Assembly (NCBI GenBank): GCA_965211635.1
Contig: OZ242948.1
Location: 1,460,653-1,524,652, forward strand
Direction: 5' to 3'
Length of the DNA stretch: 64,000 nt
Origin: Dehalococcoidia bacterium
GTDB lineage: Bacteria > Chloroflexota > Dehalococcoidia > Bin125
This document shows, piece after piece, positions 2,126-11,964 of this stretch. Each line of letters begins with the position of its first letter. Position 1 is the stretch's first letter. The position numbers and the translations under genes were made by a program. Below the pieces are notes generated by a model. It was not told where the DNA came from. It saw nothing but the letters and a program-made list of their open reading frames with translations, and searched no databases.

Positions 2126-2409
2126 GGATGGCCAATCCACCCCATCCGGGAAGATCGCTGCTCCGGGACTGTATCGAGGAATCCAACCTCAGCATCGCCG
2201 GAGCGGCGGAGCGCCTGGGCATCCAGCAGTACTACCTCGAAGAGGTCTGCCGCTGCGAATCGCCGATCACACCGATGATCGCGATCCGCATCGTCGCAGA
2301 ATTCGGGGGCGGCGCAGAGACGTGGCTGGCGATGCAGTCGGCGCACGACCTGTGGTTGATGCGGGAGATTCTGGCTGTGTTCGAGGGATCTCAGTCGGAG
2401 CAGGCATAA
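2122..2409 (+). CDS. higA: HigA-family HTH (XRE) antitoxin
   Basis: MRMANPPHPG...L..LS...AA..LG......L..........A.R.....G....WL..Q...DLW is the canonical HigA N-terminus and HTH. Confidence 0.75.
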   Translation: MRMANPPHPGRSLLRDCIEESNLSIAGAAERLGIQQYYLEEVCRCESPITPMIAIRIVAEFGGGAETWLAMQSAHDLWLMREILAVFEGSQSEQA

Positions 2410-2467
2410 GAATTGTTAGTGATTGAACGCCAGACGTCTGAGATTCCGACAGCGATCCTGATCACCT

Positions 2468-2587
2468 CGTCATTGCCGCGCTCCGCCGCGGCAATCTCGC
2501 TGTGCGGGGCACGGACGTCTGTGCTGCACGCGGCGAGTGATCCCCGCCTTCGCGGGGACAGGCTCCGCGGCAGGCGCGGGTATGACG
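2468..2587 (+). repeat. Family A dual-hairpin element, copy 1 (variant with inner CCCCGCCTTCGCGGGG hairpin)
   Basis: CGTCATTGCCGCGC..GCGGCAATCTCGC ... GCGGCAGGCGCGGGTATGACG; about 90% identical to the copy at 8658-8777. Confidence 0.8.
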
Positions 2588-2703
2588 TTGGTTGTTTGGG
2601 GGCGGGTACAACGTTGGTTGTTTGGGGGCGGGTACAACGTTGGCTGGATGGGAGCGGGTATGACGCTGGTTGGGCGCGGGTATGACGCTGGTTGGTTGGG
2701 GCG
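2572..2703 (+). repeat. Short tandem repeat, about 25-bp unit x5 (GCGGGTA[TC][GA]ACG[TC]TGGTTG[TG]TTGGGG)
   Basis: Read directly: five consecutive near-identical 22-26 bp units derived from the tail of the family A element. Confidence 0.8.
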
Positions 2704-2728
2704 GAAGTGGCTCTCATTCTGTGGTTTC

Positions 2729-3019
2729 TCAGGCCAAATCGAGATAGAGGTCCCTCCACTCAGGATTGAACTCGTCGATTAGACCGCGACGACGGGCCTT
2801 GCTCCAGCGCTTGATCTGCTTCTCCCGAGCGATCGCCTCGTCCATGCGGTCGTGTGGCTCCATCCAGACCAGCTTGTCGATCTGGTAGCGCCTGGTGAAG
2901 GCGGAACCTTCTCCTCTCTTGTGTTGCCAGACTCGGCGAACGAGGTCGGCGGTGACTCCGGTGTAGATCGCTCCGTGAGGTCGGCTGGCGAGGATGTAGA
3001 CGCAGGGCTGGCGCGGCAT
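2729..3019 (-). CDS. GIY-YIG nuclease family protein (small YhbQ/COG2827-like)
   Basis: CVYILASRP.GAIYTGVT.DL.RRV.QHK.G.G...TRRY.....VW.E......A...EK.IKRWS.A.K..LI...NP.W.DL; 96 aa. Confidence 0.8.
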   Translation of the reverse strand: MPRQPCVYILASRPHGAIYTGVTADLVRRVWQHKRGEGSAFTRRYQIDKLVWMEPHDRMDEAIAREKQIKRWSKARRRGLIDEFNPEWRDLYLDLA

Positions 3020-3049
3020 GGTCGGCAGAGTAGCGTGGGTTCGTCTTCG

Positions 3050-3618
3050 TCACGGCGAGATACCCGCGGCAAGCGCGGGTATGACGGTGGTTGGTGGCGG
3101 GAGAGTGACGGGATTACGCCCCCTCGTCATTGCCGCGCTTGCCGCGGCAATCTCGCCGTGCCGGGTACTGGCGTTGGTCCTGGAAGCGGCGAGATACCCG
3201 CGGCGAGCGCGGGTATGACGGGGTTGGTTAAGCGCGCTTCCCCACTTCGTCATTGCCGCGCTCCGTCGCGGCAATCTCGCCGTGCCGGGTACTGGCTTTG
3301 GTCCTGGTGGCGGCGAGATACCCGCGGCAAGCGCGGGTATGACGGGGGGTCTTGGGTCGCCCCTCCACCTCGTCATTGCCGCGCTCCGTCGCGGCAATCT
3401 CGCCGTGCCGGGTACTGGCGTTGGTCCTGGTGGCGGCGAGATACCCGCGGCAAGCGCGGGTAGGACGGGGGTCTTGGGTCGCCCCTCCACCTCGTCATTG
3501 CCGCGCTCCGTCGCGGCAATCTCGCTGTGCCCCGGTCTCGCGTTGGGACTGGAAGCGGCGAGATACCCGCGGCAAGCGCGGGTATGACGGGGGTTTGGGG
3601 GGCGCGGGTATGACGGTG
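3050..3618 (+). repeat. Tandem array, about 4.6 copies of a 122-123 bp unit built from family A hairpin pairs
   Basis: Unit boundaries at 3125, 3248, 3371 and 3493; unit = CGTCATTGCCGCGCTCCGTCGCGGCAATCTCGCC-spacer-GGCGAGATACCCGCGGCAAGCGCGGGTATGACGG-spacer; the spacers are conserved, so this is not a CRISPR array. Confidence 0.85.
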
Positions 3619-3628
3619 ATCTACGCCG

Positions 3629-6600
3629 TCAGCGGTCCAGGATCGCAGCGACCCTCCGCGCCACCTCCGAGAACCACGACACCTCCGACACGCTCAACCC
3701 CCGGCCCAGCACCTTCGATTCTCGGTAGCTGAGCCACTTCTTGAGGACCTGGTAGCCGCCTAATCGGTATTCCCACACCTCGACCGGCACATCCCGCCAG
3801 TACGCCCGATCGTTCAGATATACGTCTACCACGTCTCCCCGACGCTCGAGCTTGCCCTGGCCGGGCATGACGGCTTGATTGGAGCCGAAGTGGCCCCAGC
3901 CGGCGGTGAGGTGGAAGTCGGCCGGTTGCATGGGGTTGGCGTCGACCGTGGTGGGGACGGCGATGTGGGTGTGGTCGGCGAGGAGGTCGGCGACATCGGA
4001 CTCGGTGTCGAGCAGGCGGGCGAGGCGGTGGCCTCGGGCGGCGGACTGGGCGAGGTCGGCGGGGTCGTCGGGCAGGGGAATGCGGGGCCAGCCCATGCGC
4101 AGACCGCCGGCGTTGGCCTCGCGGTAGGCGGGGTCGTGCAGCGTGGCGAGGACGTGGTGGAAGAGGTCTTCGGGCGAGGCGTCCATGGAGTCGATGTAGG
4201 CCCGCGCCTGCTCGCTCAGGTTGGCGGTGCGCTTGACGCCGTCGACCTCCTCGCCGAGCAGCTCGTCTCGGAGGTAGAGCGGGAAACACGTAGCGCTTCG
4301 ATCCATAAGGTCTAGGCAGCCAATACAAGAAAGAACCTGTGGGGGAGACCATTCTCGTCTGGGCTTCTGTTGGGATACCAAGGTCAGATTGTCGGCGAAT
4401 ACATGTGGACGGTACTTCGGCCGCGGACGGTCCAACAACTCGCTGGCCGGAGCCCAGTAGAGCCAACGTGCATCGAATGGTCGGTACGAGTAGCGGATCA
4501 GTTCTGAGCCATCGACGTCCATGTAAGGGCCCAGTCTCACAGCGAGGAGATCATGGTCAATATCCACGACCAACTCGTCGTTGCCGGTCTTGACTCCTGC
4601 GTAGTAACCGGGGAACAAGTCCGGAAGAGACGGCATGTTAAACCATCCCTTACTTGGTTCGAGCGGGGCAAAGGGGAGCCCGACCTTAGGCTCCGAATCG
4701 ATTTCCTTATACAACTCCACCGGTTCTGTGCCGGCCGAGCATTCCAATGCCTTCAGTTTCTCTACGCCCCAAAGGTCCCTCCATCCAACGCTCGATGCTG
4801 GCTCGTGTTTCTCCTTGCGAACAAGAGTCGCAATCGCCGTACCTACCTGGATGCCGACCGGATCGTCCTTGGTCGAGAAGACGCTCGGATCGGGATCACC
4901 CTCCGGTGTGAGCTTGCCGGTGCGGTACTTGTCGCCGTTGAGGTTGTCGATGCGGATGATGTCGAATGCGTCGAGGTAGCGCTGTCTCATGCCGGGGAAG
5001 GAGAGGCCGTCGAGCCAGGAGTAGTTGCTGATGAAGCAGACAATGCCCTTGCCCGTCTTCTCGGCGATGCGCCGCTCGGCCATGCGGAAGAAGCGCACGT
5101 AGAGGTCGTTGAGTCCCTGGCCCTGCGGCTTGGGCACGTCGGCTCCGGAGACTGGCTGCTTGACCGTGCGGTAGGCGTCCGACAACGCCCGCTCCTCCGC
5201 CACGTCGGGCACGCCGGGGAAGCCGTTGTAGGGCGGGTTGCCGAGCACGACGAGGATCGGGCGCTGCTGCTTGACCTCGTTCGCGCTGCGGCGCTCCTGT
5301 TCTAGCTCGGGGAAGGGCAGCGGCTTGGTCGTGTGCGGCTCCCAGCCGGTCAGGGCGTTGGTCAGGAAGACCCCGGCGCGCTGCTCTGTCGAGAGTCCCG
5401 CGCCCAGGCGCTCCAGCGCGAGGCCGATTTCGAGGTGCGAGACGACGAGCGGCGCGGGCATGATCTCGAACCCAAAGACCCGCGTCGCGGCGGCCTGTCG
5501 GACCGACTCGGCCCAGGTCGCGCCGCCCGAGGCCTGCTCGGTCTCGGCGATCCGGCGCAGCGTCTCGACCAGGAAGGCGCCCGTGCCGCAGCAGGGATCG
5601 AGCACGTAGACGCGCTCGTCGGCAAGGCCCTTGGCGATTCCCAGATCGTCGCGCAGCGCCCGGTCAACCCGGGCGACCATGTAGCGCACGATTTCGCGCG
5701 GCGTGTACCAGACGCCGAGCTGCTTGCGCAGGTCGGGATCGAATGCTTCGAGGAAGGGCTCATAGAAGTACTGCACCGCCTCGCCCTCCGAAAAGCGCTT
5801 GAGAAACGCCTCGCGGTCAACGCGGTCCAGCGCCGCCTCGGTCCAGTCCAGCACCTCGTCCAGCCCCAGCCGTTCCAGCCGGCCGGGATCGGTGATCTGG
5901 TGGAAGAGCATGCGCAGCACCGGCGCGCGCAGCTCGTAGACGGTGTCCTTCCAGCCGAAGCGTCCCGATTTGCCGGCCCGCGCCCAGAGCACCCAGGCGG
6001 CGAAGACTCCGTAGAACAGCGTCTGCACCAGTGTCGAGCGGAAGAACCGGCCGCCGTCTTCGCTCTCGAACGACATCCCCAGCGCCTGCTCGATCGCCTC
6101 GCGGATCGTCTGGAGCGAGTCCTCTTCCTCCGCCGCCTGCTCGACCCGCTGCAAGGCGTCGCGGGCGTAGGAGGCGAGCAAACGGGCGAGGTCGCGCGGT
6201 TCGGAGATCGTCGAGCGGTGCGACATCACGCGCAGCAGGTACTCGCCCAGCGAGATGCCGTGCCGGTTGGCGGCTCGGGTGGTGTGTTGGAGCAGGTCGT
6301 CGAAGGCAGGGATGGAGTCGGCGAGCGAGTAGCGCTCGAGCGTCGCCTTTGCGCCGTCGTTGTCCTGTCCGACCAGCGCGAACTCGCGCAGGTTGGTCAC
6401 GAGGACGAGGTTGCGCGCTTGCCAGTAGCTGTCGACCTGTTCGGAGGCGATCAGCGCGTCGAGGTCGGCGTCGGCGCCCTTGACCTCGACCACGCCGCGG
6501 TCGGGGTCGGTGTTCTCGCCGGAGAAGAATCCGAGGTCGGGTTGGCCGGAGACGGTCTCGCTGTAGTGAACGACGGCGCGCACTTTGGGCGAGAGTTCAT

Positions 6601-6724
6601 CGCCGACGGCGTCGAAGAGGTTGTCGAGCGCGGTGTAGTGGGAGAGCTCGGGTGTCCCGACGCGGCTGCCGGCTGAGATGGCGTCGAGGTACCGCTTGAC
6701 GGCCTGGCGGAGTTCGACGGTCAC
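3629..6724 (-). CDS. MmeI-family Type IIL restriction-modification enzyme (N-terminal PD-ExK-like nuclease, gamma-class N6-adenine MTase, C-terminal TRD)
   Basis: 1031 aa; DPDRGVVEVKGAD (D..EVK) near the N-terminus; motif I VLDPCCGTGAFLV; motif IV LGNPPYNG; C-terminal W.Y.LGGYQVLKKWLSYR as in MmeI/PglX-like enzymes; GTG start overlaps the upstream stop (GTGA). Confidence 0.8.
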   Translation of the reverse strand: MTVELRQAVKRYLDAISAGSRVGTPELSHYTALDNLFDAVGDELSPKVRAVVHYSETVSGQPDLGFFSGENTDPDRGVVEVKGADADLDALIASEQVDSYWQARNLVLVTNLREFALVGQDNDGAKATLERYSLADSIPAFDDLLQHTTRAANRHGISLGEYLLRVMSHRSTISEPRDLARLLASYARDALQRVEQAAEEEDSLQTIREAIEQALGMSFESEDGGRFFRSTLVQTLFYGVFAAWVLWARAGKSGRFGWKDTVYELRAPVLRMLFHQITDPGRLERLGLDEVLDWTEAALDRVDREAFLKRFSEGEAVQYFYEPFLEAFDPDLRKQLGVWYTPREIVRYMVARVDRALRDDLGIAKGLADERVYVLDPCCGTGAFLVETLRRIAETEQASGGATWAESVRQAAATRVFGFEIMPAPLVVSHLEIGLALERLGAGLSTEQRAGVFLTNALTGWEPHTTKPLPFPELEQERRSANEVKQQRPILVVLGNPPYNGFPGVPDVAEERALSDAYRTVKQPVSGADVPKPQGQGLNDLYVRFFRMAERRIAEKTGKGIVCFISNYSWLDGLSFPGMRQRYLDAFDIIRIDNLNGDKYRTGKLTPEGDPDPSVFSTKDDPVGIQVGTAIATLVRKEKHEPASSVGWRDLWGVEKLKALECSAGTEPVELYKEIDSEPKVGLPFAPLEPSKGWFNMPSLPDLFPGYYAGVKTGNDELVVDIDHDLLAVRLGPYMDVDGSELIRYSYRPFDARWLYWAPASELLDRPRPKYRPHVFADNLTLVSQQKPRREWSPPQVLSCIGCLDLMDRSATCFPLYLRDELLGEEVDGVKRTANLSEQARAYIDSMDASPEDLFHHVLATLHDPAYREANAGGLRMGWPRIPLPDDPADLAQSAARGHRLARLLDTESDVADLLADHTHIAVPTTVDANPMQPADFHLTAGWGHFGSNQAVMPGQGKLERRGDVVDVYLNDRAYWRDVPVEVWEYRLGGYQVLKKWLSYRESKVLGRGLSVSEVSWFSEVARRVAAILDR

Positions 6725-7215
6725 TCGCGTCCCACGCCGCCTCGCCAGACGAGCGGCTCGCCGGTTTCCTCGTCCAGGAGGCCGTCAAGGATGGGCGGAT
6801 CGGCGGGGTCGGCCATGGCGGAGTCGAGTTGGGCCTGGGTCAGTCCGATGGCGACGCCTTCGAGTCGGTCGGAGAAGATCGCGCCGCTGATGTCTGCGCC
6901 AAGCAGGTTGGCTCCTGTGAAGTTGGCGCGCCAGAGTTCGGCGCCGTGCAGCACAGTGCGGGAGAGGTTCGCGTTGGTGAAATCGGCGCCGGACATGAGT
7001 GAGCCGGTCAAATCTGAGCCACGAAGATTCGCGTCAACGAACCACTTGTCCTCCGCGATCGCTCCGCGCATGTTTGAGTACGGCCAATCGATGGGAATCG
7101 GTCGCTCGCGCTCTGCGTTCTTGGGATCGGCGCGTATATCGACGATCGCCTGCTGATCACGCCGCATAAACGGGACGGATTTCCTACTGCGTGCTGGATG
7201 ATTGCTGGTCGTCAT
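6721..7215 (-). CDS. Pentapeptide-repeat protein
   Basis: Run of A(D/N)LxG pentapeptides (ANLRGSDLTGSLMSGADFTNANLSRTVLHGAELWRANFTGANLLGADISGAIFSD); ATG at 7215 preceded by GAAGGAG; stop overlaps the start of the R-M gene. Confidence 0.75.
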   Translation of the reverse strand: MTTSNHPARSRKSVPFMRRDQQAIVDIRADPKNAERERPIPIDWPYSNMRGAIAEDKWFVDANLRGSDLTGSLMSGADFTNANLSRTVLHGAELWRANFTGANLLGADISGAIFSDRLEGVAIGLTQAQLDSAMADPADPPILDGLLDEETGEPLVWRGGVGRE

Positions 7216-7642
7216 CAGCTCCTTCACCGTCCCGTTCGAACTTGTCGATCCTGAGTAGTAGGGCGACCTGTAGCTCGTACTCTTCAGGGTAGGCGCTCGC
7301 AAGCTGCTGCAAGGTCCGGGCGGCCGTCTCCCTCACCGATTCATCTGCGCTTTCCAACATCCCGACGGCTCGATGAAAGCGCTCATCCAACTGGGCTCGA
7401 TGGGCTGTTTCCGCCTGTCGTTCGCTGACTCGGCTGCGCCAAATCGCGAGCGGCAGCGCGATCACGGCGGCGGCGATCAGGCCGAAGTTGCGCACCTCGT
7501 CGGACGAGTCCCACCAGATGGCGGTGACGGCGATCAACAGGGCGAGCGCGGCCAGCGTGACCAACGCGAGCCGTGACTCCAGGCGCCAGAGCGCGGCGCG
7601 CACGAGCGCTTCCAACCACAGCAGCGGGTCGCGCCAACTCAC
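7184..7642 (-). CDS. Small membrane protein (2 predicted TM helices, acidic C-terminal tail)
   Basis: Hydrophobic segments LALVTLAALALLIAVTAIWW and FGLIAAAVIALPLAIW; start overlaps the panE stop (ATGA). Confidence 0.5.
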   Translation of the reverse strand: MSWRDPLLWLEALVRAALWRLESRLALVTLAALALLIAVTAIWWDSSDEVRNFGLIAAAVIALPLAIWRSRVSERQAETAHRAQLDERFHRAVGMLESADESVRETAARTLQQLASAYPEEYELQVALLLRIDKFERDGEGADDDQQSSSTQ

Positions 7643-8598
7643 GGCTGCGGCCCGCCCAGCTTGCCGACCAGCGTCGCGACCATCGACATCATCGGCACTC
7701 CCACGCCTAATTCACTCGCCCGCTGCACCGGTTGGCGGAAGATGGCGTCGAGTTCGAGGGGGCGGCCCTCGTTGTAGTCGATGACAGTGCTGGGGCGGTA
7801 GGCGCCCATGCCGAGGGTCTGGGTGAGGAACTGGTGGGCGAGTCGGCCGCCGTCGATGCGGACGGCTTCGCCACGCGCGTCGAGGTCGGCGTTGCCGGCG
7901 GCCACGATCTCCATGATGATCTCGTAGGCCGCGTCGTAGAGCGGCGGCTCGGTGATCACCTGGTCGACGCCGACGCCACCGGCGATCACGCAGAGGCCGT
8001 TGAAGGGGATGTTCCAGCAGAGCTTCTCCCAGCGGGCTTTGAGCAGGCTCGATTCGGGCCGGATCTCGACCTTGCTGCCGGCGAACAGGTCGACCCCGCG
8101 TTGCAGCTCGTCGGGGTCGTCGCCGTGGTGTCCGAGGTTGATCGCGCCGAACTCCTGGTGCAGGATCTGGCCCGGCTCGCCGCGGATCACGCCGATGAAT
8201 CCGAGTCCGCCGAACAGCGACGTGCCTTCCGGCAGTTGCTCGGCGATCTCATCGTCAACCGTGAGGCCGTTCATGATCGCGAGGACGCGCGTGTCGTCGG
8301 AGAGCAGCGGTCCGACAAGCGTGGGGATGTCGGGGATCGCGGTCGCCTTGAGTCCGACCAGGACCCAGTCGACGGGTCCGTGCGCGGCCAGCGCCTCGGG
8401 TGTGCGCTCGACGGTCGGGGCGTCGAGAGACAGGTCGCCGAGGTGGCTGGTCAGGTGCAGTCCGTCGGCCTTGACGGCGTCGTAGTCGCGGCGCATGAGG
8501 AAGCGGACGTCGTGGCCGGCCTCGGCGAGCCGCATGCCGAAGTAGCAACCGATCGCGCCGGCTCCGATCACCGCGACCTGTTGGGGTTGTGGATGCAA
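7639..8598 (-). CDS. panE: 2-dehydropantoate 2-reductase (ApbA/PanE family)
   Basis: N-terminal VAVIGAGAIGCYFG Rossmann motif; family-typical K...N..N and C-terminal EGRPLELDAI...A...GV..P. Confidence 0.8.
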   Translation of the reverse strand: MHPQPQQVAVIGAGAIGCYFGMRLAEAGHDVRFLMRRDYDAVKADGLHLTSHLGDLSLDAPTVERTPEALAAHGPVDWVLVGLKATAIPDIPTLVGPLLSDDTRVLAIMNGLTVDDEIAEQLPEGTSLFGGLGFIGVIRGEPGQILHQEFGAINLGHHGDDPDELQRGVDLFAGSKVEIRPESSLLKARWEKLCWNIPFNGLCVIAGGVGVDQVITEPPLYDAAYEIIMEIVAAGNADLDARGEAVRIDGGRLAHQFLTQTLGMGAYRPSTVIDYNEGRPLELDAIFRQPVQRASELGVGVPMMSMVATLVGKLGGPQP

Positions 8599-8657
8599 AG
8601 GGCGCCCCTTTGTGAGTTCGTACTGCCTTAAGACCGTCCGAATCCTGCCCAGAGCAC

Positions 8658-8777
8658 CGTCATTGCCGCGCTTGCCGCGGCAATCTCGCTGTGTTGGGCA
8701 CTGATGTCCGCGCTAAACGCGGCGAGTGATCCCCGCCTTCGCGGGGACAGGCTCCGCGGCAAGCGCGGGTATGACGG
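8658..8777 (+). repeat. Family A dual-hairpin element, copy 3 (same variant and orientation as copy 1)
   Basis: CGTCATTGCCGCGCTTGCCGCGGCAATCTCGC...GCGGCGAGTGATCCCCGCCTTCGCGGGGACAGGCTCCGCGGCAAGCGCGGGTATGACGG. Confidence 0.8.
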
Positions 8778-8813
8778 AGTCATGTCTGTTGATTCGTTGC
8801 ACATGAACTGGCC

Positions 8814-10001
8814 TCAATCCCCAGCCGCCGATTGGGCCTGGAGCGGTTCAACAAGGCGGTCGATGCGGAAGAGGCCGAGGTTGTGCTCGGTCTTACGGTG
8901 CATGCTGAGGTCGGCGAGGGCCTCGCCGATGGCCGGGGCGAACTTGAAGCCGTGTCCCGAGCAGGGGCTGGCGACCACGATGTTGGGCCGCTTGGGGTGG
9001 ATGTCGATCAGGAAGTGGTGGTCGGGCGTGTGCGTGTAGAGACAGGTCTCGGCGCGCAGCAGCGTCCCGGAGACATCGGGGAAGGTGTTCGCGAGGAAGT
9101 CGCGCACGCGGCGCATATCAGTCTCGGTGATCTCGCGGCTGTAGTCCGACGGCTCGACCTCGTCCAGCGGCTGGTGCAGTCCCAGCTTGAAGCCCTTGCC
9201 GATGTTGGGAAAACCGTACCCGGTCTCGGTTTCGCTGCGTTGCCACATCCAGAAGGGGATCGCGCCGAACTCGAAGTGGTCGGGATTGTCGCGCGCCTCG
9301 AACCAATACATCACCTGGCGGGTGACGGTCAGCGGCAGGTTGAGCTTGCCCAGCAGTCCTGCGTTCCAGGCGCCGGAGGTGACGACCAAGCGCTCGGCAT
9401 CGTACGTGCCGCGCGCGGTCTGGATCCTGATTGGCGATTCAAGGTCGTCCATCTCGATCGGCAGCCAGCGGTCGACCGGCTCGTCGAAGTGCAGGTCCGC
9501 GCCGTGCGCGGCGGCCTGGTCGAGCTGACCGTTGAGCGCCGTGTCAATGTCCAACATCCCGGCGCGCTGTTCCAGCACGCCGACAAGGTCGTCGGTGACG
9601 TGGATGCCCGGGTAGCGGCGGCGCAGCTCGGCAGCGTCCATCTGCTCGACCGCGATGTCGTGCTCGCGGGCGCTTGCGACCACGCCCTGGACGAGGTCGT
9701 TGCCTTCCGGTCCCAGCGAGAGCGCGCCGGTCTGGGTGAAGATCGGTTGTCCGACGGCGTTGGACAGTTCGTCCCAGAGCTCGTAGGCGCGGCGGACGAA
9801 GGGCACATAGGAAGGCCCCTCGGTATAGGCCTCGCGGATGCCGCGGCTGTCGCCGTGGGTCGAGCCGAACAGGTGCGGCGGCCGGAATCGGTCGAAGCCG
9901 ATCACCCGCTGTCCGCGTCTGGCCAGGTGCCAGGCGGCGGCGGAGCCCATCGCTCCGAGCCCGACGACGGCTACGTCATATCGATTGTTCGAAGTGCTCA
10001 T
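8814..10001 (-). CDS. FAD-dependent N-methyl-L-tryptophan/sarcosine oxidase (MSOX/SolA family)
   Basis: YDVAVVGLGAMGSAAAW FAD motif; MSOX-like C-terminus H..C.YT.TPD..F; start ATG 10001 with AGGAGGA 5 nt upstream; ATGA overlap with the upstream gene. Confidence 0.8.
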   Translation of the reverse strand: MSTSNNRYDVAVVGLGAMGSAAAWHLARRGQRVIGFDRFRPPHLFGSTHGDSRGIREAYTEGPSYVPFVRRAYELWDELSNAVGQPIFTQTGALSLGPEGNDLVQGVVASAREHDIAVEQMDAAELRRRYPGIHVTDDLVGVLEQRAGMLDIDTALNGQLDQAAAHGADLHFDEPVDRWLPIEMDDLESPIRIQTARGTYDAERLVVTSGAWNAGLLGKLNLPLTVTRQVMYWFEARDNPDHFEFGAIPFWMWQRSETETGYGFPNIGKGFKLGLHQPLDEVEPSDYSREITETDMRRVRDFLANTFPDVSGTLLRAETCLYTHTPDHHFLIDIHPKRPNIVVASPCSGHGFKFAPAIGEALADLSMHRKTEHNLGLFRIDRLVEPLQAQSAAGD

Positions 10002-10453
10002 CCTGATCCTCCTGCGGCCGCGGAACCGGCCTGCGATTTCATCTCCGAGGCCACCTGCGACATCGAGTTGTGTTCCCAGTAGAGGACGTGTTCGACGTGT
10101 TCTCGGATTGACCACTCGTCGTTCGGCGCCTTGGCGTCGAGCAGGGCGTCGTCCATGTGCAGGAGCTGTCCGACCAGCTCGGCTCGCTGGAAGATCAGGT
10201 CGCGCGCGAGGTGGGAGAGCGGCGACTCCTGCATCTGCTTCGCCGTGTAGCGCGCGGTCGAGACGGCGCCGGCGTGCATGCGGTCGTGCTCGGCGTTGTG
10301 CACCAACAGGCGTCGGACGCCGCCGTTCATCGCGCAGCCGTGCTCGGTCGGGAACGAGAGGTCGTCGTCCGAGAGTCCGGAGAGCTGCTCGACCGTGTCG
10401 GTCAGTTGGCGCAGCAGCTTGAGCGTGAGTTCGGTGGATTCATTGGTAGGCAT
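9998..10453 (-). CDS. DinB/YfiT-like four-helix-bundle protein
   Basis: 151 aa with spaced His residues (H..H...H..H) typical of the DinB_2 fold; translationally coupled to the oxidase gene. Confidence 0.5.
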   Translation of the reverse strand: MPTNESTELTLKLLRQLTDTVEQLSGLSDDDLSFPTEHGCAMNGGVRRLLVHNAEHDRMHAGAVSTARYTAKQMQESPLSHLARDLIFQRAELVGQLLHMDDALLDAKAPNDEWSIREHVEHVLYWEHNSMSQVASEMKSQAGSAAAGGSG

Positions 10454-10504
10454 GAGCCCCCTCCGCCCCTTCGGGGCACCTCCCCCAGAGGGGGAGGTCT
10501 TCGT

Positions 10505-11542
10505 TCAGTCGTTTCCTTTTGCGAGGAACTTCAACAGCGTCTGGTTGGTGAAATCGGGCGCTTCCTCGGGGAAGAAGTGGCCGGCGCCGGGGACGCCGAC
10601 GGCGGTGAGGTCGGGGAAGTACATCGAGAACTGGTCGAAGAACGGGTTACCCGAGGGCGCCTCGGCGCCGGACCCGCTGTCGGGCGCGAGGCGGGCGTTT
10701 CCGTACATCCAGAGTGCGGGCTTGTCGAAGCGCTTGTGCCGATCCTCCGGTCCGTACTCCATGAACTCGCGGCCCCAGGGGTGGTCGTTCAGCCCGCGGC
10801 GCCAGACCTCGCCGACCAGCGACGATGTCAGCCGCTCGCAGCGGTAGCCTCCGTCGACGTTCGCATCCGGACGCATGCGGTGGAAGGGCAGTGCGTGGCG
10901 GTAGTAGGAGATGGCGGCGGCGTGCGACTCGGGATCGGAGAAGGCCTGCTTGTAGACCTCGACGTCGACGTCGGTGGCCCAGCGATTTTGCGTCAGCCGC
11001 CGACCGGACACGTTCCAGGGCGAGGCGGGCCAGCCGGGCAGCTCGGGGTCGGACTGTCCGGTGAAGATGGTCTCGATGAACTGCTGGTGGTACTCGGCGA
11101 AGAAGTGCTCGGGCAGCGGGCGCGCCTTGAACCAGAAGCCGTGGATTGCCGCCGGCGTCCAGACCGTGCAGAGCGTGTCCATCAGCGCCGTCCGCGAGAC
11201 CCGATCCTGGTAGTCGATCACCACCTTGAAGCCGATGATTCCGCCCCAGTCGTGCCCGACCACTGCCGCCTGTTCCACGTCGAAGTGGTCGAGCACGCCG
11301 ACCATGTCGGCTGCCAGCGTCGCCCTCGAGACCGGCCCCGGCGGCTTGTCGGAGTCGCCGAAGCCACGCGTGTCAGGGACGATCACGCGGTAGCCGGCGT
11401 CTACCAGGACCGGCACCTGGTAGCGCCACTCGTACGAGGTCTCTGGAAAGCCGTGGATCAACAGGACGGGCGGTCCGTCGGAGGGTCCGTCCGTGGTGAC
11501 GTGGATCCGTATCCCGTTGGCATCGATGCGCTGGGTCTCCAT
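10505..11542 (-). CDS. Alpha/beta hydrolase (epoxide hydrolase-like)
   Basis: LLIHGFPETSYEWRYQ ... GHDWGG nucleophile elbow. Confidence 0.75.
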   Translation of the reverse strand: METQRIDANGIRIHVTTDGPSDGPPVLLIHGFPETSYEWRYQVPVLVDAGYRVIVPDTRGFGDSDKPPGPVSRATLAADMVGVLDHFDVEQAAVVGHDWGGIIGFKVVIDYQDRVSRTALMDTLCTVWTPAAIHGFWFKARPLPEHFFAEYHQQFIETIFTGQSDPELPGWPASPWNVSGRRLTQNRWATDVDVEVYKQAFSDPESHAAAISYYRHALPFHRMRPDANVDGGYRCERLTSSLVGEVWRRGLNDHPWGREFMEYGPEDRHKRFDKPALWMYGNARLAPDSGSGAEAPSGNPFFDQFSMYFPDLTAVGVPGAGHFFPEEAPDFTNQTLLKFLAKGND

Positions 11543-11604
11543 GGGCGGCTCCGATCGCTACATCGCGCAGGCTAGCGCGGGAGGGCGTCGACTACACTGA
11601 CCCC

Positions 11605-11964
11605 ATGGCAACCGAGCAAGTCGTTCACTACCGAGGCATCAGCGCCGAGCACCTGGACCACGCCCAAGGGTTCCTGGCCGAGGGCGATCTCAAGCAAGCC
11701 TCCGAGAAGGCCTGGGGTGCAGCAGCATTGCTGGTCAAAGCGGCTGCGGAAGAGCGGGGGTGGCGACACGAGGGGCACCGTGACTTATGGCGCGCCCTGC
11801 ATCGGCTCGCCGACGAAACCGAGGACGAGGAGATGCGCCGGCAGTTCGGTCTGGCCGGTGCGTTGCACACCAACTACTACGAAGACTGGCTCGACACGAA
11901 GGCAGTGGAACAGTATCTCGGCGAGGTTAGGCAACTGACTGGCAAACTCAGCGTGCTGGCCTAG
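11605..11964 (+). CDS. HEPN-like small protein (PaREP1-family resemblance)
   Basis: GDLKQASEKAWGAAALLVKAAAEERGW.HEGH (R-x6-H) pattern; 119 aa. Confidence 0.4.
   Translation: MATEQVVHYRGISAEHLDHAQGFLAEGDLKQASEKAWGAAALLVKAAAEERGWRHEGHRDLWRALHRLADETEDEEMRRQFGLAGALHTNYYEDWLDTKAVEQYLGEVRQLTGKLSVLA

Follow-up and report, generated by a model that had tools for sequence, protein, structure and literature searches.

A predicted membrane-bound pentapeptide-repeat protein encoded beside a DrdV-like Type IIL restriction-modification enzyme in Dehalococcoidia and other bacteria

Type IIL restriction-modification enzymes are regarded as self-contained. Here we describe a run of four genes on the minus strand of a 64,000-nt stretch of a Dehalococcoidia bacterium (Chloroflexota; GenBank assembly GCA_965211635.1, contig OZ242948.1, positions 1,460,653 to 1,524,652), referred to as the window and numbered from its first letter, in which the gene of a DrdV-like Type IIL enzyme directly follows two small genes whose products, by homology, make up a membrane protein with pentapeptide repeats, hereafter the companion. 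The pairing of enzyme and companion is real and apparently undescribed, and the enzyme itself is a new member of the DrdV-like Type IIL group. A literature search found no paper linking pentapeptide repeats with Type IIG/IIL, MmeI or DrdV enzymes, in agreement with an earlier note on this DNA, which knew of no such accessory for Type IIL enzymes, and the pairing is absent from PADLOC. A recurrent, co-translated and membrane-anchored partner would be the first accessory described for enzymes of this type.

The enzyme is best compared with DrdV (PDB 7lo5/7lvv). The DrdV preprint describes a nuclease-connector-methyltransferase-recognition architecture and its relation to Type ISP enzymes, and calls self/non-self discrimination in such enzymes, which must spare host sites left unmethylated by recent replication, an open question. 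DrdV (1029 aa) and the window enzyme (1031 aa) share this domain order, neither has a helicase domain, and DrdV ranks first both by sequence in the methyltransferase and recognition domains (3.6e-50) and by fold in the nuclease domain. The two differ in the N-terminal 315 aa of the window enzyme, where similarity is detectable in the fold and not in the sequence; no accessory gene has been described for DrdV. With the MmeI family (PDB 5hr4) the enzyme shares a single-chain nuclease-methyltransferase-recognition design, a D..EXK nuclease motif and NPPY; according to published work, members of the MmeI family modify a single strand and cut only when several sites are available (PMC2731913, PMC4833311). 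Its recognition domain, however, is of the Type ISP kind. The Type ISP enzymes LlaBIII and LlaGI have homologous methyltransferase and recognition domains (2e-37 and 2.7e-33; PF18135), whereas the window enzyme lacks their Mrr-type nuclease and RecA-like translocase and is ~400-550 aa shorter.

Regarding the companion, a likeness by architecture description only exists with HglK, a cyanobacterial membrane protein with four membrane helices and ~36 C-terminal pentapeptide repeats that takes part in heterocyst glycolipid deposition; in both, N-terminal membrane helices precede a cytoplasmic (in the companion, predicted) pentapeptide-repeat array. Qnr, MfpA and AlbG have the right-handed quadrilateral beta-helix fold in common with the companion, but they are soluble dimers of ~8-9 coils that target gyrase, whereas the companion is predicted to be membrane-anchored and has 3 to ~9 coils and a variable charge. 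Ocr and ArdA are comparable in concept only, as DNA-shaped proteins that block restriction-modification enzymes (PMC7261183); they are phage- or plasmid-encoded, strongly acidic and of unrelated fold, whereas the companion is encoded beside the enzyme and predicted to be membrane-bound. Pentapeptide repeats have also been proposed as sensor or scaffold modules in bNACHT/NLR-like and vWA-MoxR conflict systems (10.1101/2022.07.19.500537; PMC7159879), which likewise join a variable repeat array to conserved modules in defence-type neighbourhoods. The companion differs from these in having no STAND/NACHT NTPase or vWA partner, in that its conserved module is a two-transmembrane (2-TM) helical domain, and in that its partner is a restriction-modification enzyme.

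Enzyme and split companion in the window

The four genes are co-directional and follow each other in the order panE, 2-TM gene, pentapeptide-repeat (PPR) gene and enzyme gene, with successive overlaps of 4, 32 and 4 nt. The absence of gaps reported in the earlier note thus stands, with the second overlap (7184-7215) depending on an ATG at 7215 as the PPR start. The PPR reading frame is open up to 7302, and an alternative start, the ATG at 7167, would leave a gap of 17 nt to the 2-TM gene; upstream of the ATG at 7215 lies GAAGGAG, and translation from this ATG begins with 'MTT', a start which is conserved in the homologs P0003, P0004 and P0006 (related proteins and loci are referred to by running numbers, P and L respectively). 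Direct reading also bore out the reported junction of PPR and enzyme genes, in which the PPR stop TGA (6723-6721) and the enzyme GTG start (6724-6722) are joined as GTGA (6721-6724); the identical 4-nt overlap is found in L001 and L005. At the other end, the overlap of the panE stop with the 2-TM start (7639-7642) had been correctly recognised, but its sequence is GTGA and not ATGA as noted.

The enzyme gene (3629-6724) encodes a protein of 1031 aa which matches PADLOC REase_MTase_IIG (1.1e-94), Pfam N6_Mtase (6.4e-10) and, over aa 739-1008, Pfam PF18135, Type_ISP_C (2.7e-45). A profile search against the PDB placed DrdV 7lo5 first, followed by LlaBIII and LlaGI, all three matches spanning the methyltransferase and recognition domains. 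The domain order is PD-(D/E)XK nuclease, helical connector, N6-adenine methyltransferase and Type-ISP-type recognition domain. The nuclease domain (~aa 1-170; 6215-6724), assigned from its catalytic residues and a fold match of the AlphaFold2 model, carries PD at 6536-6541 and EVK at 6479-6487; the methyltransferase domain (~aa 316-640; 4805-5779), assigned by N6_Mtase and aligned to DrdV residues 282-578, carries motif I, DPCCGTG, at 5579-5599 and motif IV, NPPY, at 5228-5239, the coordinates of all four motifs having been checked. The C-terminal target-recognition domain, of the Type ISP/DrdV kind (~aa 641-1031; 3632-4804), was delimited by PF18135 and by the DrdV profile alignment, which extends through residue 895. 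An AlphaFold2 model of the N-terminal 315 aa contains a confident alpha/beta domain, with a block-mean predicted local distance difference test (pLDDT) score mostly of ~80-90 in the nuclease domain. By fold, this domain is closest to chains of DrdV, among them that of the nuclease domain, 7lvv_C (template modelling score, TM, 0.65), and next to BpuSI. The residues P62, D63, E80 and K82 occur in all of the 79 homologs aligned there, two being gapped at P62/D63, and DPCCGTG and NPPY are invariant in the 79 homologs; the D..EVK and NPPY motifs, whose possible degeneracy had been raised in the earlier note, are therefore intact. Owing to the domain matches, the nuclease fold match and the invariant catalytic motifs, the 1031-aa protein is a complete DrdV-like Type IIL restriction-modification enzyme, and its sequence indicates that it is probably active.

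The previous assignment to an MmeI-family Type IIL enzyme was right as to the Type IIL/IIG architecture and wrong as to the family: the MmeI_Mtase model reached 20.1 bits against a cutoff of 27, none of the other MmeI domains in Pfam (MmeI_N, MmeI_hel, MmeI_TRD, MmeI_C) was matched, and the C-terminus is of the Type ISP/DrdV kind. Identity with BREX PglX was also considered and rejected, as NCBIfam BREX-2 PglX scored 15.5 bits against a cutoff of 400, PADLOC PglX matched a partial stretch only (1.8e-6), a nuclease domain is present, and no BREX genes (BrxA, BrxB, BrxC, BrxL, PglZ) lie nearby. No ResIII/helicase match to the enzyme was obtained in Pfam, NCBIfam or PADLOC, the LlaGI and LlaBIII matches being confined to the methyltransferase and recognition parts, and no methyltransferase or specificity gene was found among the Pfam-scanned neighbours (panE, DAO, DinB_2, hydrolase, GIY-YIG, HigB-like and UDG).

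By sequence homology, the 2-TM gene and the PPR gene each encode one half of a protein of a single family. The 2-TM gene (7184-7642; 152 aa) corresponds to the N-terminal half, being homologous to the N-termini of the single-chain proteins P0012, P0016 and P0023; as the earlier note had stated, its product has two hydrophobic segments by hydropathy (~residues 25-43 and 50-68), and it also holds a conserved helical (HEAT-like) domain. The PPR gene (6721-7215; 164 aa) corresponds to the C-terminal half and matches Pfam Pentapeptide (PF00805; 1.4e-21, 76.1 bits against a cutoff of 20.2). It comprises a linker with capping helices, 13 pentapeptide repeats (6847-7041) and a conserved tail (6724-6846) reading GLTQAQLD..ADP..PP.L.G..D.ETGEPLVWRG. 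Its orthologs P0001-P0009 are 59-95% identical, close homologs measuring 148-166 aa, and next in the match list are proteins of ~280-340 aa whose N-termini resemble the window 2-TM protein and whose C-termini resemble the repeats and tail. The tail of these longer proteins reads GLTQAQLD..ADP.NPP.L.GV.DAETGEPLVWRG, and the family N-domain consists of the second membrane helix and a helical domain with the signature 'LLNERYQ.GAEMLG..VR.GGIYAL'. Hidden Markov models (HMMs) of the N-domain and the tail recognised the window 2-TM gene at 3.7e-49 and the window PPR gene at 2.6e-22, respectively. Elsewhere, then, the companion is a single chain of ~280-450 aa, in which two N-terminal membrane helices are followed by a conserved helical domain, by a PPR beta-helix that varies and by a conserved 38-aa tail. 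Since the two genes encode one split protein, the PPR half is predicted to be part of a membrane-anchored protein and not a free soluble factor.

In the AlphaFold2 model of the full-length member P0023 (pLDDT 83), two long helices and a helical domain are followed by a regular beta-helix with an ordered tail. The beta-helix resembles pentapeptide-repeat proteins of solved structure, the closest being the cyanobacterial Rfr-type proteins NP275, alr5209 and HetL. According to the positive-inside rule, all of the companion except the short loop between the helices is predicted to be cytoplasmic. Mean identity is 0.49-0.58 in the second membrane helix, the helical domain and the tail, and 0.21-0.36 in the linker and repeats. 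The N-domain superfamily comprises 1096 representative homologs; pentapeptide repeats occur in 102 of the top 149, among which no other C-terminal domain was found. Searches of Pfam, NCBIfam and PADLOC returned no family for the helical domain or the tail. A scan of viral contigs gave one weak match, confined to the repeat region (query residues 192-278), and hence no evidence of a phage-borne version.

The split of the companion is not an artefact, since the linker is broken at one and the same position, with the halves overlapping by 14-32 nt, in several independent assemblies (the window, L001, L002/L003/L004 and L005), and both halves are under purifying selection. The ratio of non-synonymous to synonymous substitution rates (dN/dS) is 0.15-0.40 for the PPR half and 0.22-0.37 for the 2-TM half, similar to the values for the enzyme and panE, and separate N-halves of 140-150 aa also exist as the representatives P0241-P0244. 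A programmed frameshift joining the halves was considered and rejected: no slippery heptamer was seen on inspection of the 32-nt overlap, and the second half starts from a conserved ATG of its own behind a Shine-Dalgarno-like motif.

Occurrence of the pairing in other genomes

Seen from the enzyme side, adjacency was assessed in the best 80 of at least 557 loci with relatives of the enzyme, one genome being taken per species. These 80 enzymes are 53-82% identical to that of the window and belong to Dehalococcoidia, Binatia, Latescibacterota, Longimicrobiales, Acidobacteriota, Proteobacteria and other groups. The names of several records point to organisms living with sponges, and the window may likewise have a sponge-associated source. 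According to the N-domain and tail HMMs, the companion lies directly beside the enzyme gene and on the same strand at 16 of the 80 loci, 15 of them among the 37 loci from Chloroflexota and one among the 43 from other phyla. By chance, ~0.1-0.7 loci would be expected in 80, compared with 12-16 observed, and the chance probability is below 1e-11 even if 30 family copies per genome are assumed. The companion-bearing loci fall into at least 12 groups of unrelated flanking genes and are scattered across the enzyme tree; the recurrence of PPR/2-TM homologs next to the enzyme, which the earlier note had proposed as a check, is thus established in at least 12 independent genomic contexts.

As a rule, a full-length companion gene stands immediately downstream of the enzyme gene. 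When downstream neighbours are clustered, no group is as large as that of the companion, which comprises 12 loci, the second-largest having 4. Spacing was determined at 18 loci, namely 15 of the 16 together with L001, L002 and L008, which came from protein look-ups; in 14 of them the candidate companion start lies between -3 and +4 nt from the enzyme stop. The enzyme of L061 (Latescibacterota) is 86-89% identical to those of the companion-less loci L052, L053 and L075, and in the comparisons of L061 with L052/L053, L086 with L020, and L025 with L057, the enzyme and the matching flanks are common to both sides, the 1-3 kb after the enzyme stop being what differs. The segment after the enzyme stop is therefore a variable cargo slot. 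Elsewhere this slot holds genes which, from their sequences, are predicted to be PIN-like (4 loci), NDT-like (3), AAA ATPase, radical SAM and C5-methyltransferase genes.

A repeat-run detector and two marker HMMs revealed no associated loci beyond the 16. Clustering of open reading frames (ORFs) from stop to stop had suggested other, non-family pentapeptide proteins beside the enzyme at 31 loci in other phyla, and this was dismissed as an artefact of shadow ORFs in high-GC DNA. The overall correlation between enzyme and companion (r = 0.62, Mantel p = 0.003) is driven by two deep clades and is not informative. Altogether, the pairing is recurrent, specific and tightly packed but facultative, and it is largely limited to Chloroflexota.

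The view from the companion side is based on eight tail-bearing members from outside the window's clade that were located on contigs. In three of them the enzyme gene is directly upstream: P0023 (L008) and P0018 (L174), both with overlapping genes, and P0022 (L173; 67-nt gap), the last in an integrase-flanked island. P0015 (L171/L172) abuts a remnant of 25 codons of the enzyme C-terminus (72% identity, E = 3e-5), which directly precedes its start at 5924-5998 of L171 and 5646-5720 of L172, and at least some orphan companions are therefore decayed enzyme-companion cassettes. Four of the eight have no enzyme gene nearby and lie in islands rich in toxin-antitoxin pairs or mobile elements. L174 and L006 represent one chromosomal locus with the enzyme (plus one companion) and without it; in the latter, two full-length companion genes of 309 and 367 aa stand in tandem (7001-9194). 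The link with the enzyme is specific to the tail-bearing subfamily.

In the window's own clade, seven loci (the window, L001, L002, L012, L013, L015 and L017) have in common the flanking block DAO-panE...HigBA-UDG-CoA transferase, and the arrangement was therefore inherited vertically within this clade. L001, L002, L015 and L017 carry the split pair upstream of the enzyme and a second copy downstream, the window has the upstream pair only and L012 the downstream copy only, and in L013 the upstream copy is reduced to a remnant of 31 codons. L018 has neither copy, and its enzyme ortholog (82% identity) is interrupted. In L012 and L018, panE abuts the enzyme gene directly. The designation of the enzyme as 'solo' in the earlier note accordingly applies to the window and fails in its relatives, where a second full-length PPR gene lies 3' of the enzyme.

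Readings of the pairing

The reading we prefer, with confidence that is about even, sees in the companion a facultative accessory to the enzyme, serving as a membrane-anchored scaffold or sensor and not as a soluble DNA mimic. Anchored at the inner membrane and facing the cytoplasm, the companion would bind, position or gate the enzyme there; the tail or the beta-helix would be the contact surface to the enzyme, and the variable repeats may offer a recognition surface. If functional, such a companion would point to spatial or sensor-based control of restriction. A bolder version, which we consider quite unlikely, makes the companion a true regulatory subunit: its tail would tether the enzyme to the inner membrane, its beta-helix would sense phage DNA entry or phage proteins, cleavage complexes of several enzymes would assemble preferentially on incoming DNA, and distant, newly replicated chromosomal sites would be methylated. 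In this way, enzymes that modify only one strand would tell self from non-self by spatial means.

The physical or functional interaction with the enzyme, the membrane tethering and the topology are inferred, and several observations weigh against a functional partnership. At 64 of the 80 enzyme loci the companion family is missing, among them the closely related L010, L014 and L016, whose genomic positions differ from that of the window, and the upstream pair has been lost in L012 and L018. The slot holds many other defence-type genes, some packed as tightly and several with stop/start overlaps, so that tight packing alone proves little. Within the main clade there is no co-phylogeny (r = -0.02), and sequence divergence is much faster in the companion (35-54% identity) than in the enzyme (70-83%). 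Among the 79 homologs, no enzyme residue separates companion-bearing from companion-less loci, and differences in length are unconvincing. Conversely, the companion occurs without the enzyme in L006 (the tandem pair), L007, L009, L171 and L176, and members of the wider 2TM-helical-PPR superfamily in soil metagenomes have heterogeneous neighbours and no such enzyme nearby.

The most serious competitor, to which we give rather less credence than to the accessory reading, takes the companion as an independent cargo gene of defence islands, whose membrane protein would function by itself, for instance as sensor and effector of an abortive-infection type, without molecular interplay with the enzyme, and which often rides in the variable slot of a very common enzyme gene and spreads with it by recombination. 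The 80% of enzyme genes without a companion, the other genes taken up by the same slot, the missing main-clade co-phylogeny and the fast divergence all speak for it, as do the intact orphans in islands that are rich in toxin-antitoxin pairs or bear integrases or insertion sequences, and a weak PADLOC match of the 2-TM half to a '4TM effector' (E = 0.0023). This last point is offset by the seven full-length members searched, for which PADLOC-DB v2 gave no match. The specificity of the adjacency is moreover high, the companion gene immediately flanking the enzyme gene on the same strand and with overlapping codons in at least 12 contexts. Of the tail-bearing members sampled, half have, or once had, a gene of this single enzyme family directly upstream, and copies stand on both sides of the enzyme in the window's clade. 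Even if the companion proved to be independent, it would define an uncharacterised family of membrane pentapeptide-repeat proteins living in defence islands, and a variable cargo slot directly after a very widespread enzyme gene. As small two-gene cassettes, the enzyme-companion pairs would be tractable in E. coli, though the source organisms are uncultured.

It is improbable that the PPR beta-helix mimics B-DNA in the DNA-binding cleft of the enzyme as a built-in governor or safety factor against self-restriction, a form of the DNA-mimic role suggested in the earlier note. The Rfr beta-helix fold is indeed common to MfpA and Qnr, the window PPR half is acidic (net charge -7, isoelectric point 4.8), and co-translation would suit a stoichiometric inhibitor of an enzyme type whose self/non-self problem is acknowledged (DrdV preprint). 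The dimensions, however, speak otherwise. The rise of a pentapeptide beta-helix is 4.8 Å per coil, and the 13 pentapeptides of the window (65 aa, ~3.25 coils), with a net charge of -3 in the repeat part, would thus extend over ~16 Å, equivalent to <5 bp of DNA. Family members differ in the length of the repeat region (66 to 187 aa) and in the charge of their C-terminal 150 aa (+4 to -15); in P0023, which is encoded beside an enzyme gene (L008), this charge is +1. Conservation is concentrated in the membrane/helical domain and the tail, not in the repeats; the NCBIfam models of Qnr (22 bits, cutoff 240) and MfpA (24.7 bits, cutoff 360) are far from being matched; most enzymes of the subfamily do without a companion; and the intact companion is predicted to be membrane-anchored. 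The proposal of a DNA-mimic governor has therefore gained no specific support.

The two remaining explanations are both highly improbable. A mere synteny inherited in one Dehalococcoidia clade, or chance, would fit the seven loci with common flanks, but not the pairing in 11 further contexts with unrelated flanks, its presence at one Latescibacterota locus whose closest relatives lack it, or the excess over chance expectation; and a decaying frameshifted pseudogene or an assembly artefact, as suggested by the many frameshifted enzyme genes in the long-read metagenome-assembled genomes of the data set and by splits at a similar position in L017, L028 and L057, is contradicted by the recurrent linker split with its 14-32 nt overlap, the conserved 'MTT' start, the Shine-Dalgarno-like motif ahead of the window PPR start, purifying selection on both halves and the separate N-halves.

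Variants and neighbouring features

The N-terminal 315 aa of the enzyme subfamily match at least 1606 protein clusters, and many database entries of the subfamily are shortened by frameshifts typical of long-read assemblies. The occurrence of many phyla at only 53-60% identity to the window enzyme suggests extensive horizontal spread of the subfamily within one habitat.

Further variants were observed in the relatives of the window. L017 carries two split pairs, upstream (3826-5995) and ~1.3 kb downstream (10543-11608) of the enzyme, split at the same linker position. In L002/L003, the upstream PPR gene and the enzyme gene are separated by an insertion on the opposite strand, a PIN toxin gene with a small adjacent gene (VapBC-like; 8549-9288), which breaks the translational coupling seen in the window. 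In L018, an insertion of ~3 kb (8187-11235) separates residues 736 and 742 of the enzyme.

The genes flanking the four-gene run on both sides are housekeeping or small mobile genes. The first gene of the run, panE (7639-8598, minus strand), encodes 2-dehydropantoate 2-reductase, as indicated by Pfam ApbA and ApbA_C and by NCBIfam TIGR00745 (181 bits against a cutoff of 141), and is a housekeeping neighbour of the companion and enzyme genes; further upstream are DAO, DinB_2 and hydrolase genes, and downstream lie a GIY-YIG ORF, a HigB-like pair and UDG. Scans for sigma-70 promoters and intrinsic terminators in 2400-10200 gave no signal beyond the shuffled expectation.

The region 3' of the enzyme (2440-3620), which in relatives is the site of the second, full-length companion, is occupied in the window by arrays resembling repetitive extragenic palindromes or bacterial interspersed mosaic elements (REP/BIME-like; 3040-3620 and 2440-2700), flanking a 96-aa GIY-YIG ORF (2729-3019). 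The arrays consist of 4-5 tandem units of 122-124 nt with two palindromes each (ATACCCGCGGCAAGCGCGGGTAT and CATTGCCGCGCTTGCCGCGGCAATC). Beyond them, at 1814-2409 on the plus strand and convergent with the enzyme operon, there is a HigB-like toxin ORF, with a Pfam match (9.7e-6) just under the cutoff, and an overlapping ORF of 95 aa (2122-2409, no Pfam match), probably its antitoxin. Equivalent small gene pairs are found in L001, L002 and L005.

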